From the NCBI GenBank assembly GCA_049516755.1, contig JBEKSU010000001.1, positions 1 to 51,306 of the forward strand: a stretch of 51,306 nucleotides of DNA. The letters run 5' to 3'. The notes beneath the pieces are model-generated. The model was not told the DNA's origin and did not search any database. It was given only the letters and a program-made list of their open reading frames with translations. Source of the stretch: Verrucomicrobiota bacterium. Its GTDB lineage: Bacteria; Verrucomicrobiota; Verrucomicrobiia; Limisphaerales; UBA11358. The stretch's first letter is position 1, and each line of letters opens with the position of its first letter. Made by a program: the position numbers and the translations under genes. Shown here one piece after another: positions 21,434 to 27,993 of this stretch.

Positions 21434-22336
21434 TCACTGACGGCGCCGCGCGAGTCCCAAGACTCCAATGCCCAGAGCGATGAGGGCCAGGCTGGTCGGT
21501 TCCGGAACCACCGTGACTTCCAAGCCTTTGTCCTTGGTCAAGTCGAATTCCTGACCGGCATCAAGCGTTACGTTCCACTGAAAGGCCCACGAAACATCAC
21601 CCGTAGCCGTGGTGATGTCGTTCAAATTCAAATAATTCAAACCGCTGAGTTCGTTCAACGTCTGGGGAACCTGTGCCGCCTCGGCTCTGTTTGCGTTCGG
21701 TCCCAGAATGACTTCACCAATGCCCGTGCCGCCCGGGCCACCGGTCGTTTGGGTGGCTCCCCCATAATTGCCCGGCCCGCCAGAGATATTAACGGTATTG
21801 TTGTTGTTCTGCAGCAAATTGAAATTTGAATATTGGTAGAAGCTCAAGTTGATCTGGCTTAAGCCGTTGTTCACCAAAGATATAGACTCCATCAAATCGG
21901 CGCTCGGAGTGGTCGCGCCGTTGCCCGACAAAGTATATTCAAGACTAGCGGTGAGTTGGCCGTTGTTATACACAACGCCCAAGTCATTAAGCGAACCGAG
22001 AGGGTTGCCGTTGACACTATATACGGTCGCGGCGCTGATAGTGTTTATTGGCTGGGGAGCGGAGCCGTTGATTGAATACCAGAACCACTGCTGGTTTAAT
22101 TGACTCTGGCTAACCCCCCCCACGAACCAGCTATTCATCCCCAAAGTGCCAGTGTTGCCGACATTGACCGTGGCCGTGGATCCATTGTCATTCATTGTAT
22201 AGGTGCTCTGACCGGTTATGTCCACTTGTGCCATGCCTGCGGATGGCAGGAATAAAACTCCCGTCGCAATCCCGGCCATGCACAGTGCCCCAAAATGCCA
22301 GCAAGCCACATATTTTTTAAATTCGCCGTTTTTCAT
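21434..22336 (-). CDS. PEP-CTERM sorting-domain surface protein (paralogue 1)
   Basis: C-terminus VPEPTSLALIALGIGVLGLARRRQ (PEP motif, TM helix, Arg cluster). Signal peptide after the chosen start MKNGEFKKY. Shares the LSFYQYSNF block with 22500..23333. Confidence 0.8.
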   Translation of the reverse strand: MKNGEFKKYVACWHFGALCMAGIATGVLFLPSAGMAQVDITGQSTYTMNDNGSTATVNVGNTGTLGMNSWFVGGVSQSQLNQQWFWYSINGSAPQPINTISAATVYSVNGNPLGSLNDLGVVYNNGQLTASLEYTLSGNGATTPSADLMESISLVNNGLSQINLSFYQYSNFNLLQNNNNTVNISGGPGNYGGATQTTGGPGGTGIGEVILGPNANRAEAAQVPQTLNELSGLNYLNLNDITTATGDVSWAFQWNVTLDAGQEFDLTKDKGLEVTVVPEPTSLALIALGIGVLGLARRRQ

Positions 22337-22499
22337 ATTCAATTGCTCCTCGATTTTGTTTTTTAGCTTCAACTTTAGTCCGACTTGCTCCTTGATGTTC
22401 TTCAGGATTGATTGGTTGTTTATGGTTAAATATTGATCCGGCCGGTTTTGTTTCAGTTTTGTTTCGCGTATGTTTGTTTTATGGTCTGCAAATCCCAAG

Positions 22500-23333
22500 T
22501 CATGAACGGCGGCGATGCAACCATACTAAAGCAAGCATGCCCGTCGAAATAAGCGCCGCAGACGAAGGTTCGGGCACCGGAAAACTTGAAGTAATACTCA
22601 CCGTCATATTGTTGCCGGCTGCGACAGGACCTGAAAACTCATAGCCAAAGACCGCATTGCCCGAGGCGGTCAAGGTCGTGTTGTCAAGGTCGCCCGACCC
22701 GATGAAGGCACCAAACGGGGCGCCGCTGGAATCGGCCTGCACCAAGGTTGAATAGCCGGTTGCAAATCCCTTCCAAGAAAGCGGCCAAGCCCCGCCAATT
22801 TGGCTTTGGTTAACCACAGCATAGGCCTGGGATGCTGACCAAGGAGAAATACTTAGATACTGGTTTCCCGCGCCGGAAGAACCGCCAAGCACGAAATTTG
22901 AATATTGGTACAGGCTCATATTTTGATTTTCACCGCTCGTATTATTGAATACAATTTGCTCCCCCAATGAGGCGCCATTGAGCGATAACTTGTCAGCAAC
23001 GGTGCCAATGCCCGCAATGGTGTACGTCACAGTTAAATATTTTGTGGAACCGAAGCTGCTGGTAACAACCGATCCGCCAGTTAATTGGGTCAGCGGCCCG
23101 CCGCTGATGAGGCTGTAGTATAAAGTTTGCAGGGACAATTGATTGATACCCCCGTAAGCCCAACTGGTAAATCCGTTGACTGAGTCGTCATAAGTCGCAC
23201 TGTAACCACTCGTCGTGGTAATCGTTGTCGGTGACGCGCTGCTTTGAACTGTCAAGGCCATCATGATTAGTGTAAAAAAAGCGCCCCGTAACATCTGCGC
23301 CCCGTTTACGAAGTAATTTTTTTGAATCTTCAT
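22500..23333 (-). CDS. PEP-CTERM sorting-domain surface protein (paralogue 2)
   Basis: C-terminus VPEPSSAALISTGMLALVWLHRRRS. Signal peptide FFTLIMMALTVQSSA. Shares the MSLYQYSNF block. Confidence 0.8.
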   Translation of the reverse strand: MKIQKNYFVNGAQMLRGAFFTLIMMALTVQSSASPTTITTTSGYSATYDDSVNGFTSWAYGGINQLSLQTLYYSLISGGPLTQLTGGSVVTSSFGSTKYLTVTYTIAGIGTVADKLSLNGASLGEQIVFNNTSGENQNMSLYQYSNFVLGGSSGAGNQYLSISPWSASQAYAVVNQSQIGGAWPLSWKGFATGYSTLVQADSSGAPFGAFIGSGDLDNTTLTASGNAVFGYEFSGPVAAGNNMTVSITSSFPVPEPSSAALISTGMLALVWLHRRRS

Positions 23334-23450
23334 AGGGGGTTTTGAATGTTTACTCAGTTTCTTGTTTTATTAATTTTCGGCTTTCTGATTATTACTGGTT
23401 TTGGGGTTTGATGGCTTGTTGGTTGGCTCAGGGGCCGATCCCGCGGTTGC

Positions 23451-23525
23451 TTCTGATTATTTGTTTTTGCGGGGGCCTGCTTGCATCCTGGCTACCCACC
23501 AGATTCCTGCGCCGGTAAATGGATG
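23451..23525. repeat. conserved intergenic element, copy A (TTCTGATT ... TTGCGGGGGCCTGCTTGCATCCTGG-N7-CCAGATTCCTGCGCC)
   Basis: About 60 nt closely similar to 24562..24637. It lies about 27 nt downstream (minus-strand sense) of the stop of 23552..24274. Confidence 0.7.
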
Positions 23526-23551
23526 TTGTTTCATTTTGAATGTCCTGCTGG

Positions 23552-24274
23552 TTATCGGGAACACCGGTTTTTGGAAGAGTGCCGACCACAAGCCAGGGCA
23601 CCCAAGCCCAGCAGAAAACAGCCCGCCGTCGTGGGTTCGGGAACCGTAAAACAGTCTATGTCGCCAACGCTGCTGCCATTGCTGTCAAAGCTGCTATTCC
23701 ATAAACCGGTGAAGAGATGGTCGCCCGAACTGGCATCAAACCATGCGTCGAGAATAATCCCACCTGCGGCGACACTTCCGCCGAAAGCACTTTCCAAGGA
23801 ACCACCGGTAGCATTGAAACGAAATTGAAAAAGGTTGTTGTTGCCATCGCCATAACCAAAAGCCGTCCCCGCTGCTCCCGTGACCAAATTGGCGGTCAAT
23901 AGCGTCACACTTGTATCACCGTCACCGACTGCACCATTAATGGTCAGGGTTCCACCCGTCAAAATCGGGTTTCCGGCATTGTAGTTGATGGTCGCTGACA
24001 AAATATAGGAGTCGGGTATTGAAACCCCCACGTCGGTTGCCCCGCCGTTACCATCAGAGATGTTATAATCCGTTGTCCACCCGCTCGCCAGGAAAGCGCC
24101 TGTACCCGTGCCCGCATTGTAACTGTAAGTCACATCCATGAAAGAACCGGTCAAGTCGGGCAAAGGCACTGGGTTGCTCGGGAAAATTATGTCCGTCGCC
24201 GGCCCCGCCATGGATTGTGAAATCGCCAGAACCAATAACGCACCGATTGCAGTCAGAATTTTCAGGGTTTTCAT
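23552..24274 (-). CDS. PEP-CTERM sorting-domain surface protein (3)
   Basis: C-terminus FTVPEPTTAGCFLLGLGALACGRHSSKNR. Signal peptide MKTLKILTAIGALLVLAISQSMA. Confidence 0.8.
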   Translation of the reverse strand: MKTLKILTAIGALLVLAISQSMAGPATDIIFPSNPVPLPDLTGSFMDVTYSYNAGTGTGAFLASGWTTDYNISDGNGGATDVGVSIPDSYILSATINYNAGNPILTGGTLTINGAVGDGDTSVTLLTANLVTGAAGTAFGYGDGNNNLFQFRFNATGGSLESAFGGSVAAGGIILDAWFDASSGDHLFTGLWNSSFDSNGSSVGDIDCFTVPEPTTAGCFLLGLGALACGRHSSKNRCSR

Positions 24275-24434
24275 ATTTCTTAAGTTTTGAATTTAATGGA
24301 CGTTTTTGGCACATGAACCACCGCTGGCCTCAACCGCAATTCCAAGCAGCGTCGCATGACCCACCGACCCGCCAGCCCGCAAACCAAGAGTGCAAGGATT
24401 CCGATTTTCATATGCTTTTCCGTTTTGGTTTTAT

Positions 24435-24593
24435 TTCTGATTTCTGATTTGTGGGTTGCGGGGGCCTGCTGATTTGAGTTTTGCTATTCTGATTGTTTTT
24501 CTGATTCATTATTTGCGGGGGCCTGCTGGTTTGCATTTCTGATCCGACTGATCTGAGTATTTTCTGATTGGGTCATTGCGGGGGGGGCCTGCT
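24435..24593. repeat. three tandem 57-63 bp units, each with 2x TTCTGAT(T/C) plus TTGCGGGGGCCTGCT
   Basis: The GC-rich 15-mer occurs at 24456, 24513 and 24576. The last copy has G8 instead of G5. TTCTGAT(T/C) octamers occur at 24435, 24442, 24487, 24499, 24537 and 24562. Confidence 0.8.
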
Positions 24594-24637
24594 TGAATCC
24601 TGGTGGCACGCCAGATTCCTGCGCTGGAAAATGAATT
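24562..24637. repeat. conserved intergenic element, copy B
   Basis: See copy A. Contains the hairpin-capable GAATCCTGGTG-GCA-CGCCAGATTC (24595..24618). Lies about 22 nt downstream of the stop of 24659..25345. Confidence 0.7.
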
Positions 24638-24658
24638 TGGGTTCGGTTTGTTCATGAC

Positions 24659-25345
24659 CTATAAAGCCAATAAAATTCTGAGGCGGTTGAAGAAACCATA
24701 GGACGACGTTCCCTGCCGATCTTCCTCCCGCGTTCTCGCCGGCCGGGAGCGCCTGGATCCCGACTTTTTGCTGATGGGTTCCCCCAGGTTGGTGGTTACC
24801 TGCACACAACGATCGTCCCACAGCTCAATCATTCGTTTGTCCTTGACGTTGGTCACTTCCAATTCCGGCAACCCACAACTGGCAAGCCATTCCTTTATCG
24901 CCGCCACCTGCCGGGGGGAGGAGGCGCGGGCGGTGAAAATTTTTACGGTGCGGCCTTCGGCAATCCACTTCTGCACACGGGCCAGCATCGGTTCAATCGG
25001 ACTGCCAATCTCATCCCCGCGCGCACTCCCAAGATCGCGGGCCAGTGTCCCGTCCAGGTCCACACCAATCCACGGGGATCCGCCATACCGCACTTGCGAA
25101 TTGTCCGCGAACTGCTGGCCGCACTTGCGGCACACCGCGCCGATGCGACCGTCCTCCAGCCAGAAGGGCATCAAGGCCTCACCGCAACAAGTAGTCTCTC
25201 CATTGGGTGTGGGGAAGCCATTCTCCGAGCCTTTCTGGCCATCCTGATCGAACCAAGGCATGTATCTTGCACCGCCCTTGGCTCTGCCAGCATCGGCCAT
25301 CGCTTCCACATTGTTATGTAATGCCATGTTCATCGCGACTATCAC
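24659..25345 (-). CDS. HAD-superfamily phosphatase (NT5C/deoxynucleotidase-like core) with N-terminal Zn-ribbon
   Basis: HAD motif I VDLDGT (D96, D98), motif II FTAR (T138), a Lys in VTNVKDK, motif IV LWDD (D177, D178). N-terminal C53C54-x17-C72-x2-C75. The start is uncertain (several Met). Confidence 0.6.
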   Translation of the reverse strand: MIVAMNMALHNNVEAMADAGRAKGGARYMPWFDQDGQKGSENGFPTPNGETTCCGEALMPFWLEDGRIGAVCRKCGQQFADNSQVRYGGSPWIGVDLDGTLARDLGSARGDEIGSPIEPMLARVQKWIAEGRTVKIFTARASSPRQVAAIKEWLASCGLPELEVTNVKDKRMIELWDDRCVQVTTNLGEPISKKSGSRRSRPARTREEDRQGTSSYGFFNRLRILLAL

Positions 25346-25463
25346 TGAAGCTGCTCTTTAGCGGCTCCTCACATCCGTGCGCGTTGGTTTTACTACGGGC
25401 ACACCGCCCCTTATTTTCACACTTACTGTTGTCGTCGGAAGCCGTAACACTTACAATCAATTC

Positions 25464-25630
25464 ATGTTCACAATTGGCCTCTAAATGCTCACAAAATGGC
25501 CGGGGTTATTGACAAAAAGACGGGATGTTCACAAACCTTCAAAAACCAGGCAGGATTAATTCACCATTGTAAAAGTTATTCACCATTTAGGGAAGTTATT
25601 CACAAAGCGTCTAAATTTATTGACAAAAGT
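25464..25630 (+). promoter_or_regulatory. array of 8 same-orientation repeats (core (G/T)TTATT(C/G)AC or ATG(T/C)TCAC) with 19-21 bp phasing apart from one 32-bp gap
   Basis: TTCAC/TTGAC/CTCAC cores at 25467, 25488, 25509, 25528, 25560, 25579, 25599 and 25620, plus an outlier at 25416. The best copies are GTTATTGAC (25505), GTTATTCAC (25575, 25595) and TTTATTGAC (25616). The region is AT-rich and sits between divergent genes. Confidence 0.6.
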
Positions 25631-25648
25631 GTCTTAAATATCTACACT
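25620..25648 (+). promoter_or_regulatory. sigma70-type promoter reading toward the Zn-ribbon ORF
   Basis: TTGACA (25620..25625), exactly 17 nt, then TACACT (25643..25648). The -35 element is itself the last repeat copy. Confidence 0.5.
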
Positions 25649-25793
25649 GCACGCATTGGTAACGGGCAAAAGGCTTGAGAAGGTTTTGCTCTTGGACAAA
25701 CTCGGAACATAGCGCTTCCAGAACATCTGGAAGCTGAGAAATGAGACTTTGGCAGCACTATTGTAACACAATCAGTTTGGAAGTTGTTTCAGA

Positions 25794-26165
25794 TTGAAGG
25801 CAGTGATTACTGTAGCGCGGTGGAGTAAAGTCGTAGTTTCCATGTGGTTTATGGTAGACAATACCGCCATCCAACAGGCAAATCAGTTGCCTCAAGGCAA
25901 TGTAAACAGTGGCTTGGCCAATCTGTTACAGGGATCCATTACACATCTGGCCTGCAAATGCTCAACAAAGGATAATGCGGATTTTTTAATCAAGAAGGAT
26001 CGCATCGTCTGTGCCTTTTGTGACCGGGAGATCTTTTGCCTGCCGCCCATACTTGGAGTTTACAAGGCCACGTGCAGTTGTTGTAACTCGCCATCAGTCA
26101 AATCCACATTCGTTCTGGATTCGCGCGGACTCTATGTTTGTACCTGGTGCGGTCGAACGAAGTAG
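25794..26165 (+). CDS. small Cys-rich protein with two tandem Zn-ribbon modules
   Basis: C54-x-C56-x16-C73-x2-C76 and C94-x-C96C97-x18-C116-x2-C119. Low GC relative to its neighbours. The ORF-track start is TTG; ATG alternatives are at 25842 and 25851. Confidence 0.45.
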   Translation: MKAVITVARWSKVVVSMWFMVDNTAIQQANQLPQGNVNSGLANLLQGSITHLACKCSTKDNADFLIKKDRIVCAFCDREIFCLPPILGVYKATCSCCNSPSVKSTFVLDSRGLYVCTWCGRTK

Positions 26166-26223
26166 GCTGGCGCGAGTTTGTAAATGCCCCCGCCAAATTC
26201 TCAGACCAACAGTTTGCCGCAGA

Positions 26224-27993
26224 TCACGGCCTGCGGCGGATAAGTTCGAAATTGCATAGCCGCACTTCTGGTTTGCCCGCGGGGTCGAGCACCAGTTGTT
26301 CGTCCGCGTCGAAGGAAATCAGCAGATGATCAGGTTTGAGATTGAGGTCCTCAAATCCGAAGCGAGCCTGTTTGCGCGCCACCATCTGCGTCAGTTCCGT
26401 TGACATTTGCCCGGAAATCAGTTTGTTGGTGAAGGCGCGTTTGACGTTGACGGCCTGGTAGTATTTTCCATCCTGCGCCGCGAGCAGCTCGTCCGGGCCG
26501 TTCCAAAAGCCCCAGATGGTGATGTAGTCGTATTCCTTGCGCACGGCCGGGTCCCCGTCGGGCGTGCGGACATCAGCCAGCGCGGCGTAACGCCGTTCGT
26601 CGGATACCTGGCGGGCGGAGCCCCGCTGGCGGCCGGTCATGTAAATGGCGCGCGGGTAGACCGTCCGCACGTCGTGGTGGCTCATTTCGAGCGCAAAGGC
26701 AAACTCCTCGAAAGGACTGTTGAACCCATAGGCCTGCGCTTCCTCCTTGTGGGCGTCGGGATTCTTCAACCATGGCGAGTCGCCCATGCGCGAAACCTTC
26801 CACACCAGGTTGATGTTGTCCTTGGTGCGCGTGTAAAAAATCTGGTTGCGGGCGGACAGTTTTTTCTTCGGCGTGCGGCGCCACCGTTCCGGCAGAAAAT
26901 AATTAAACAGGTCGGGGTCCTTGCCCACCACCCAGAGCAGGCCGCCCGTGCTCTCGGCGCGGCCAAAAATGTAATCCACGCCCAGGATGTTGGTGGCGCG
27001 GAGATGTGCCGGCAGCGGACTGGCCGCGTCCGTGTCGAACCGGCGGGCCATGTGCTTGAGGTAAAGTTGCCGGTTGACGCTCCGCACGGCCCGTTCGTGT
27101 TCAGGGGTCCGTTCGAGCAATTCATAATCCACCAGCGCGTAGGCAAACTGGTCGTTGTGATCGCGCAGCAGCTTGTTCGATTGCGGGCGCAGAATGATGT
27201 GCGCCGGTTTCATGTCGATGACCCGGTAGCCTTTCTGCCACAATTCATGCGTGACCAGGCTGGTGACGCGGGCCAGAAATTCCGCCTGCGCCCGGCCTTC
27301 AAACCCGAATTTCTCCGCCGTTTCAACCGCATCCAGGCCCTTGATCCAGCCGAACAGAACGACGTATTGCCGGAGAATGTCAATCTCCACGCCGGGATGA
27401 CGGGTCACCTTCGCCCGGATTTTGTCCTCGGAACGGCCGGTCTGCCAGAGCTGCAAGCGCTCGTCCGGCACATAGATCGCCAGCGGGCGCTGGGTGCGGA
27501 TGCGGATGGCCGCCGGCCCGGCTTCGCCCCGGCGCAATTCCATGAGCAGCGAAAATTCTTCAAACGGACTGTTGAATTCCGCCTGAATGAACTTGTTTAC
27601 CGTGAGGGTGTCGAACGGAACCATTTCGCCCACGCGTGACCATTTGACGACTAGATTCAATACCTTGCCGCTTACCGGACGCGTCGGCACCTTGTAAACC
27701 ATGCTTGTGCCTTCCAGCCGCTCGCGCTTGGCCTCAAACCACTCTCGCGCATACCAGTTCTCCGGCAGCAGGTTTTTCCAGAACGGCAGACCAAAACGCG
27801 TGAGATACAGGTCGCCGCCGTCGTCGGTCTTCAGGCGATAATAATCCACCCCCAGGAAAGACATGGCATTGCACGGCACCGGCAAATCCGCCGGCAAAAC
27901 CAGCGGCGGCGGATTTGCGGCGGGAGCGGGTGTCGCCGAGGCGGAAATTTCCCGCGCCGGGTTGAACGTCAAAAGTTTGGCATTGGCAGCCAC
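26224..27993 (-). CDS. internally duplicated atypical kinase-fold protein (kinase-like half + degenerate half)
   Basis: Two halves of about 290 aa share LGVDY, LPExW, NLV(V/W)K(W/V)SR, FNSPFEEF, P(L/R)AIY, (D/N)xKPxH(I/L)(I/L) and (D/N)(Y/F)EL(L/I). GTG start at 27993. Confidence 0.6.
   Translation of the reverse strand: MAANAKLLTFNPAREISASATPAPAANPPPLVLPADLPVPCNAMSFLGVDYYRLKTDDGGDLYLTRFGLPFWKNLLPENWYAREWFEAKRERLEGTSMVYKVPTRPVSGKVLNLVVKWSRVGEMVPFDTLTVNKFIQAEFNSPFEEFSLLMELRRGEAGPAAIRIRTQRPLAIYVPDERLQLWQTGRSEDKIRAKVTRHPGVEIDILRQYVVLFGWIKGLDAVETAEKFGFEGRAQAEFLARVTSLVTHELWQKGYRVIDMKPAHIILRPQSNKLLRDHNDQFAYALVDYELLERTPEHERAVRSVNRQLYLKHMARRFDTDAASPLPAHLRATNILGVDYIFGRAESTGGLLWVVGKDPDLFNYFLPERWRRTPKKKLSARNQIFYTRTKDNINLVWKVSRMGDSPWLKNPDAHKEEAQAYGFNSPFEEFAFALEMSHHDVRTVYPRAIYMTGRQRGSARQVSDERRYAALADVRTPDGDPAVRKEYDYITIWGFWNGPDELLAAQDGKYYQAVNVKRAFTNKLISGQMSTELTQMVARKQARFGFEDLNLKPDHLLISFDADEQLVLDPAGKPEVRLCNFELIRRRP

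Follow-up and report, generated by a model that had tools for sequence, protein, structure and literature searches.

Do three adjoining genes, one for a kinase-like protein, one for a phosphatase-like protein and one for a small zinc-ribbon-like protein, form a single functional unit? The question arises at positions 24659-27993 of a 51,306-nucleotide stretch of DNA from a Verrucomicrobiota bacterium (Limisphaerales; assembly GCA_049516755.1, contig JBEKSU010000001.1), which we analyzed as a whole and refer to as the window. Three open reading frames (ORFs), designated A, B and C, lie within this span. Since each is conserved across homologues, we regard all three as genuine genes, at the coordinates assigned to them by an earlier note made from the sequence alone. 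That note had read the trio as one module in which a kinase, an opposing phosphatase and a small adaptor follow toxin-antitoxin-like, signalling or anti-phage logic. Our findings make it probable that the span instead comprises two unrelated units adjoining only through local synteny: B-A heads an array of genes for PEP-CTERM surface proteins, and C is separate. The three genes are as follows:

24659..25333, minus strand: gene A; zinc-ribbon-like segment, small HAD-type phosphatase core and C-terminal hydrophobic/amphipathic tail; 224 amino acids from the ATG at 25333
25794..26165, plus strand: gene B; two Cys knuckle pairs, double zinc-ribbon-like; 123 amino acids from the TTG at 25794
26224..27993, minus strand: gene C; tandem protein-kinase-like protein of 589 amino acids

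Homologues of A (n=1946), B (n=59, from the same clade throughout) and C (more than 3033, the best 120 of which share 72-91% identity) are annotated as 'hypothetical' in every source, and those that are named belong to metagenome-assembled genomes of Verrucomicrobiota/Limisphaerales, mostly from peat and soil. Scans of A, B and C against Pfam, NCBIfam and PADLOC returned no significant family match, in keeping with the earlier description of the genes as uncharacterised, and the PADLOC run placed none of them in a known defence family. Our literature search found no account of the A, B or C families, nor of a link between HAD proteins and PEP-CTERM proteins. The C family, the zinc-ribbon-HAD architecture of A and the association of A-B with PEP-CTERM genes appear to be undescribed, while the folds concerned belong to known superfamilies.

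Co-occurrence of A, B and C

We analyzed two samples of loci. The C-centred sample comprised 80 species-level genome loci with C at 60-93% identity, in which A and B were scored within 10 kb of C. The A-centred sample comprised 80 metagenome loci with A at 57-88% identity, which were also de-replicated into clusters at 95% A identity; a locus was considered to have room for A-B adjacency if at least 1.7 kb was available.

A and B were found near C in 15 of the 80 genomes. All 15 carry a C that is at least 84% identical to that of the window, and 10 of them also retain the unrelated NMO gene in synteny. The remaining 65 genomes possess C without A or B; they include all of those with C at 79% identity or less and three close relatives, namely L002 (C at 91% identity), L009 (84%) and L012 (83%). 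Clustering of the ORFs flanking C in the 80 loci identified no neighbour family that was common beyond the close clade, and where A, B and C do co-occur, the unrelated NMO and mreB genes are syntenic as well.

The A-centred sample provided the complementary view. B is divergent from and upstream of A in every locus with room (41/41; 29/29 clusters). On the far side of B, 30 of 35 loci (24/29 clusters) have C, with 1.2-2 kb inserted between C and B in 6 of those 30, and there is no C beside B in the other 5; at locus L147 NMO directly follows B without an intervening C. In the window, C and B are convergent and 58 bp apart, as the earlier note had recognized in describing C as converging on B rather than sharing its operon.

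Taken together, these findings identify A-B as a constant pair in both adjacency and orientation, and C as independent of A and B, because C mostly occurs without A or B while B is upstream of A in every locus with room. A conserved A+B+C module was not observed across lineages in which synteny has decayed. Thus the gene-neighbourhood comparison that the earlier note had suggested yielded a divided answer: A and B travel together as a tight pair, and C is not linked to them beyond the close clade. We conclude that C is a stand-alone, vertically inherited gene.

The PEP-CTERM array and the variable slot

PEP-CTERM/exosortase protein-sorting systems have reportedly been described by Haft and colleagues. 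Like the substrates of such systems, the proteins encoded by the genes that follow A end in a PEP motif, a transmembrane helix and an Arg-rich tail. The features of this region are:

21434-22498, 22500-23333 and 23552-24274, minus strand: three PEP-CTERM genes co-oriented with A, all three with the C-terminal PEP, transmembrane and Arg pattern
24441..24650, minus strand: repeated leader/intergenic element before a PEP-CTERM gene; hairpin GGAATCTGG-N7-CCAGGATTC, then AGCAGGCCCCCGCAA and repeated AATCAGAA
14126..14202, minus strand: tRNA-Met gene, far border of the variable slot (about 14.3-26.2 kb) as judged by synteny breakpoints

PF07589 matches the genes at 21434-22498 and 22500-23333, as well as neighbours in locus L001, and the gene at 23552-24274 fits the sequence pattern only. 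Of the 71 loci with room, 67 (30 of 33 clusters) have co-oriented PEP-CTERM genes downstream of A that start no more than 1.5 kb away, and each array contains one to six such genes within 6 kb of A; control loci without A contain 10 ORFs with the PEP-CTERM pattern in 1.09 Mb, or 0.09 per 10 kb. Loci in which the A-B gap is 1.2-1.5 kb carry a PEP-CTERM gene between B and A, and in the two such loci that we examined this gene ends ~10 bp before the A start codon, which suggests that A is co-transcribed with it.

When loci with A proteins 90-97% identical are compared in pairs, the PEP-CTERM proteins encoded first after A prove unrelated in 55% of the pairs; therefore, the content of the array changes whereas A and B are retained. 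Moreover, neither A and B nor any PEP-CTERM gene is found in the corresponding slot of the close relatives L002, L009 and L012; L002 has a sulfatase-family membrane protein there. As defined by nucleotide synteny, this slot extends from the 3' end of C (~26.2 kb) to tRNA-Met, which is followed by mreBCD, PBP2, RodA and RNase G. Two contigs of ~1 Mb share the order C, B, (PEP-CTERM), A, PEP-CTERM array and mreBCD. The B-A-PEP-CTERM block is cargo of this variable slot between C and tRNA-Met/mreB. The other flank of the span holds NMO, glyoxalase, ArsR and RND efflux genes, so that the placement of the genes between a surface-protein block and ordinary metabolic genes was correctly drawn in the earlier note.

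In the window the slot measures ~12 kb and encodes an HYR-domain protein, a 1002-amino-acid protein, the three PEP-CTERM proteins, A and B. It is only ~3.5 kb long in L002 (11230-14624) and L009. Two small ORFs in the L002 slot were considered as a toxin-antitoxin pair and dropped, as they had no Pfam support. The fractional guanine-plus-cytosine (GC) content of A (0.584) and C (0.601) is near the window mean of 0.584; that of B (0.475), the A-B spacer (0.433) and the PEP-CTERM genes (0.50-0.53) is low. No exosortase gene is present in the region of the window examined, and our literature search found no HAD phosphatase or double zinc-ribbon protein described as a component of PEP-CTERM/exosortase systems.

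The hairpin element recurs at 23383-23538 (minus strand), at ~14400 and 15270 in L001, and in many other A-containing loci. Variants of the hairpin GGAATCTGG-N7-CCAGGATTC are apparently compensating, and the core motif of the element occurs 67 times in A-containing loci compared to 0 times in the 1.09 Mb of control loci. No Rfam family matches it at the gathering score. The element may act as a leader RNA or be bound by a protein. A 43-codon ORF beginning MKIGILALLVCGLAG (24280-24411, minus strand) follows the repeated element immediately, close upstream of the true PEP-CTERM start at 24274, and resembles the start of a PEP-CTERM signal peptide found at the equivalent position in relatives, e.g. 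at 14472 in L001 (MKIRTLAIMAALLAGAG). This ORF looks like the 5' remnant of a cassette replacement.

The three proteins and the A-B control region

The ORF of gene A reaches a GTG at 25345 (24659-25345, 228 amino acids). The start is nonetheless likely to be the ATG at 25333, giving 224 amino acids, because most homologues in the alignment begin at the MN(T/M)AL position. Three segments can be distinguished:

25121..25189, minus strand: Cys4 zinc-ribbon-like segment of A, residues 53-75 (CCGE...CxxC)
24776..25072, minus strand: small HAD core of A, residues 92-190, of a type known as stand-alone phage proteins
24662..24703, minus strand: conserved C-terminal tail of A (...GFFNRLRILLAL), kept in the A alignment, with a helix predicted at 218-227

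The four cysteines C53, C54, C72 and C75 are invariant in an alignment of 29 homologues, AlphaFold2 models residues 51-80 as beta-hairpins (pLDDT 64-81), and searches of solved structures with the sequence and profile of A retrieved weak zinc-finger/ribbon matches only (E = 0.035-0.24). The N-terminal segment is a putative zinc ribbon. The tail, GFFNRLRILLAL, may be a membrane-targeting amphipathic helix.

The same 29 homologues share the invariant stretches WIGVD96LD98GT100LA, KIFT138ARAS, NVK168D and LWD177D178. These fit the four HAD motifs, with D96-x-D98-G-T100 as motif I and, as assigned by spacing, T138, K168 and D177-D178 as probable motifs II-IV. Only ~40 residues separate motifs I and II, and therefore there is no space for a large cap domain. 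Residues 90-165 match phrog_1238 (E = 4e-8) and phrog_415, labelled 'polynucleotide kinase' (E = 6.5e-6). Pfam has no match for A or for the 29 relatives, and NCBIfam offers Cof alone, at E = 0.22. The AlphaFold2 model of A is weak (mean pLDDT 53) and was discarded as the base for a reliable fold search; with this poor model Foldseek placed the HAD phosphatase 3qgm at the top (E = 0.066) and returned several HAD-type phosphatases among weak unrelated matches, none of them significant. The invariant motifs and the two PHROG profiles support the earlier reading of A as a HAD-type phosphatase, and D96 and D98, the residues that the earlier note had singled out for mutation in A, are among the invariant positions.

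Relatives of the A core are abundant in phages. At least 470 stretches in IMG/VR encode such relatives, and the best 80 of these are 40-67% identical to the A core. Many are stand-alone proteins of 105-150 amino acids that start exactly at GWIGVDLDGTLA and have neither zinc ribbon nor tail. Cultured phages of Rhizobium, Ralstonia, Vibrio and Burkholderia also possess relatives, and in Vibrio phage PVA7 the homologue lies between thyX and genes for an exonuclease and a DNA polymerase. The A core resembles the phage small HAD proteins of phrog_1238 (annotated 'phosphoheptose isomerase') in its WIGVDLDGTLA...KIFTAR framework without a large cap, and phage polynucleotide kinase/phosphatase (phrog_415) in that residues 90-165 match the phosphatase-domain profile. 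Unlike the phage small HADs, many of which stand alone while others lie within very large proteins, A has an N-terminal Cys4 module and a conserved tail, is chromosomal, is paired with B and heads PEP-CTERM arrays. In the IMG/VR loci L183, L182, L179/L192, L210 and L177 the small HAD core lies inside ORFs of 632-1655 amino acids, which suggests that it also serves as a module of giant multi-domain phage proteins.

Gene B has two further possible starts, ATG 25842 (107 amino acids) and ATG 25851 (104 amino acids). Its Cys knuckle pairs take the form CxC...CxxC and CxCC...CxxC, in which C54, C73, C82, C116 and C119 are invariant and C56, C76, C94, C96 and C97 nearly so. When B and 29 relatives were compared with Pfam, only sub-threshold matches emerged (TFIIB Zn ribbon, 0.027; ClpX C4, 0.027; PyrI_C, 0.13), and sequence and profile searches of solved structures found no relative. 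We regard B as a putative double zinc-ribbon protein. The earlier note had argued that A and B share a zinc-ribbon module. The Cys patterns are indeed conserved in both proteins; a common ribbon is unsupported, the probability assigned by hhalign to the A ribbon against the B ribbons being 6% or less.

The region between A and B contains the following:

25334..25841, no strand: divergent A-B control region, 43% GC compared to 58% for the window, with conserved blocks in 34 distinct relatives
25467..25605, plus strand: five TTCAC(A/C)A direct repeats, all on the same strand, the final three ~20 bp apart
25620..25648, plus strand: promoter-like site TTGACA-17-TACACT facing B, scored 10/12, both hexamers conserved; a consensus match only

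The five TTCACMA repeats are packed into 140 bp, compared to 29 matches on both strands across the whole 51-kb window; they are kept in relatives and sit immediately upstream of the promoter-like site. The description of an operator-rich, low-GC intergenic region accordingly survives, with its role putative. Just 5' of B, at 25750-25765 (plus strand), the string TGGCAGCACTATTGTA resembles a -24/-12 promoter with two mismatches. Its TTGTAACAC portion is strongly kept in relatives, the pattern is not enriched in the window, and the string may be due to chance. TGGCAC-like strings in relatives gave rise to the idea of sigma-54 promoters before the PEP-CTERM genes, which was rejected: the canonical pattern occurs 33 times in the window compared to 35 expected, and not before those genes.

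Gene C probably uses the long GTG start at 27993, because residues 1-43 are conserved in close relatives. The collection's gene call for C in the window is 546 amino acids, from M44, and close relatives are called at 589-591 amino acids. The protein is made up of two domains:

27028..27888, minus strand: N-terminal kinase-like domain of C, residues 36-322; K117, E146, D260-x-K262-P-x-H265 and D289-x-E291
26227..27027, minus strand: C-terminal degenerate kinase-like domain of C, residues 323-589; N551 and N581 in place of two catalytic Asp residues

The two halves are homologous to each other (hhalign probability 99.6%, E = 7e-24, 244 columns). Among 30 two-domain representatives at 29-57% identity, K117 (K or R), E146, D260, K262, H265, D289 and E291 of the N-terminal domain are invariant, D260 being the residue that the earlier note had picked out in C, and single-domain relatives at 33-56% identity retain the same residues with little or no variation. 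The C-terminal equivalent of D260, by comparison, may be N, R, D, F, T, E, K, P, H, A or S, and that of D289 is almost never Asp. With the AlphaFold2 model of C (pLDDT 72), all 50 of the matches listed by Foldseek, those at the top of its list, were protein-kinase domains, with probabilities up to 1.00, E ~1e-3 and low TM-scores. No Pfam or NCBIfam model matched C at E of 1 or below, and neither C nor its profiles had a sequence match among solved structures. The named kinase families Pkinase, ABC1, APH, Kdo/WaaP, RIO and HipA gave no match above threshold, although one distant single-domain relative of C matches ABC1 (ABC1/UbiB) at E = 0.005, below the cut-off.

A kinase-like domain with an intact catalytic set followed by a pseudokinase domain is a sound reading of C, and the earlier interpretation of the protein as a tandem kinase/pseudokinase is consistent with the homology of its halves, the Foldseek matches and the retention of the catalytic set in the N-terminal half only. 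C resembles the protein-kinase-like superfamily in keeping the beta3 Lys, the alphaC Glu, the catalytic-loop Asp and Lys and the metal-binding Asp; it differs from the usual protein kinases in having His for Asn in the catalytic loop and domain-specific insertions. The D-x-K-x-x-H loop resembles that of the lipopolysaccharide-core/Kdo kinases WaaP and KdkA, and of Rio/Bud32. JAK kinases and plant tandem kinase proteins are tandem kinase-pseudokinase proteins. C is comparable to these in pairing one intact and one degenerate kinase-like domain by duplication, but it is bacterial, shares no sequence kinship with them, has the active domain before the pseudokinase and contains no receptor or partner domains.

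A HMMER scan of 1.84 billion representatives retrieved 600 relatives of C (50% clustering). These include single-domain proteins of ~300 amino acids and fusions to GNAT, helix-hairpin-helix or methyltransferase domains; in the fusions P0311, P0342 and P0360 the partner is a GNAT acetyltransferase, an O-methyltransferase fragment or helix-hairpin-helix DNA-binding repeats. It is possible that such fusions hint at the substrate class. C is absent from the viral contigs searched, and it founds a protein-kinase-like family undescribed in the libraries searched.

Proposed explanation and its alternatives

Based on the above, the most likely role of A and B is to serve the adjoining PEP-CTERM array as an accessory or regulatory pair. 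We picture A as a cytoplasmic, Mg-dependent small HAD phosphatase of the phage type that would act on a macromolecular or membrane-proximal phospho-substrate, to which it would be targeted by its zinc-ribbon-like module and perhaps also by the C-terminal helix. B, a small putative double zinc-ribbon protein with its own promoter-like site behind five phased direct repeats, would be a partner of A or a regulator of the array. As for C, the protein would have arisen by ancient internal duplication; its N-terminal domain most likely transfers phosphate from ATP to some substrate, and its C-terminal copy, having lost the catalytic set, is most likely a regulatory or scaffolding pseudokinase.

Several points weigh against this explanation. 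The A-B loci all belong to a single clade, in which A is at least 57% identical, so that the link between A and the PEP-CTERM genes lacks phylogenetic independence; array turnover and the joint presence and absence of these genes still argue for it. Copies of A or B may reside elsewhere in C-bearing genomes that have neither gene adjoining C. The HAD assignment of A draws on motifs and PHROG profiles, with the Pfam and NCBIfam models failing to match, and the kinase assignment of C on weak Foldseek E-values (~1e-3) together with motifs. All enzymatic activities, and any role in PEP-CTERM biology, are ones that we infer. Finally, the persistence of C beside B in 24 of the 29 clusters of the A-B clade makes a clade-specific functional tie to C possible. 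One such tie would have the kinase of C and the phosphatase of A act, in the A-B sub-clade, on a common substrate, either B or the cytoplasmic basic tails of the PEP-CTERM proteins, as a lineage-specific phospho-switch for surface display. We consider this a highly speculative prospect; if true, exosortase substrates would for the first time be tied to regulation by a kinase-phosphatase pair.

The broader proposal that A, B and C constitute one kinase-phosphatase-adaptor module, in which C would phosphorylate a target, perhaps B, and A would undo the modification, strikes us as very unlikely. Its appeal is understandable: the three uncharacterised genes are adjacent in most de-replicated A-centred clusters (24/29) and on two long contigs, and one fold adds phosphate where the other removes it. 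However, C exists without A and B in 65 of 80 genomes, among them every one with C at 79% identity or less, and has no conserved neighbour, the adjacency being limited to a clade in which unrelated genes are syntenic too. Even there, 5 of 35 loci have no C beside B and another six have 1.2-2 kb in between, and since C and B are convergent they cannot share a transcript. The defence variant of the proposal can point to a faint match of C to the defence kinase PD-T4-6 in PADLOC-DB 2.0, but this match (E = 0.07 over 47 residues) is not significant; A and B had no match in that database, and ten neighbouring genes yielded nothing but a generic winged-helix match of the ArsR regulator. C shares only a kinase-like fold with HipAB, PD-T4-6 and the other kinases of PADLOC; it has no Pfam HipA match, antitoxin-like partner, defence neighbours or conserved gene pairing. 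We therefore see no sign of toxin-antitoxin or anti-phage logic in A, B and C. The set is very probably not a unit, and it is a poor candidate for a defence or toxin-antitoxin system, contrary to what the earlier note had envisaged.

Two other alternatives concern B-A itself. The link to the PEP-CTERM genes might be purely historical, with B-A a stable left border of a PEP-CTERM recombination hotspot and A, for example, a nucleotide or nucleic-acid-end phosphatase. The single-clade origin of the A-B loci is compatible with this, as are the 40-67% identity of the A core to phage proteins, the position of the PVA7 homologue among genes of nucleotide and DNA metabolism and the match of A to the polynucleotide-kinase PHROG. 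We nevertheless judge it unlikely, if worth keeping in mind: A and B are gone together with the array in L002, L009 and L012, A-B loci without C retain PEP-CTERM genes, the PEP-CTERM gene that ends ~10 bp before the A start in a subset of loci suggests co-transcription, and the cellular A has a zinc ribbon and tail missing from the stand-alone phage forms. It also seems extremely improbable that B-A is a phage remnant or a captured phage gene (moron) in a genomic island beside a tRNA gene. The abundance of the HAD core family in viral contigs and cultured phages, the low GC content of B (0.475) and of the intergenic region (0.433), and a slot that borders tRNA-Met and differs among close relatives would fit such an origin. 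Yet we found neither an integrase nor an att-like direct repeat in the slot, nor any other phage or defence gene, the GC content of A (0.584) is genome-like, B is absent from the viral contigs searched, and A and B are under apparent purifying selection across 48 clusters. An integrative island or prophage at tRNA-Met was accordingly rejected, there being no integrase and no direct repeat matching the 3' end of the tRNA.

Under the explanation that we favour, in which B-A heads the array and C is separate, A-B mark PEP-CTERM arrays that change rapidly, in bacteria abundant in peat and soil, and offer an entry point to the control or maturation of these poorly understood surface proteins. C is of interest in its own right, as a family without a Pfam model that numbers more than 3000 close homologues and forms 600 clusters at 50% identity; its conservation at 60-93% identity across Verrucomicrobiota implies an important function. 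Named members of the C family also come from contigs labelled Chitinispirillaceae, Fibrobacter (Fibrobacterota) and Planctomycetota. In addition, seven C-bearing contigs (L007, L013, L018, L035, L044, L046 and L077), some of them fully syntenic with A and B, bear the labels Bifidobacteriaceae, Acidoferrum, Acidiferrales, Limnocylindrales, Sulfopaludibacter or Terriglobia. Mis-binning of the contigs, or mislabelling of the metagenome-assembled genomes, is the probable cause.

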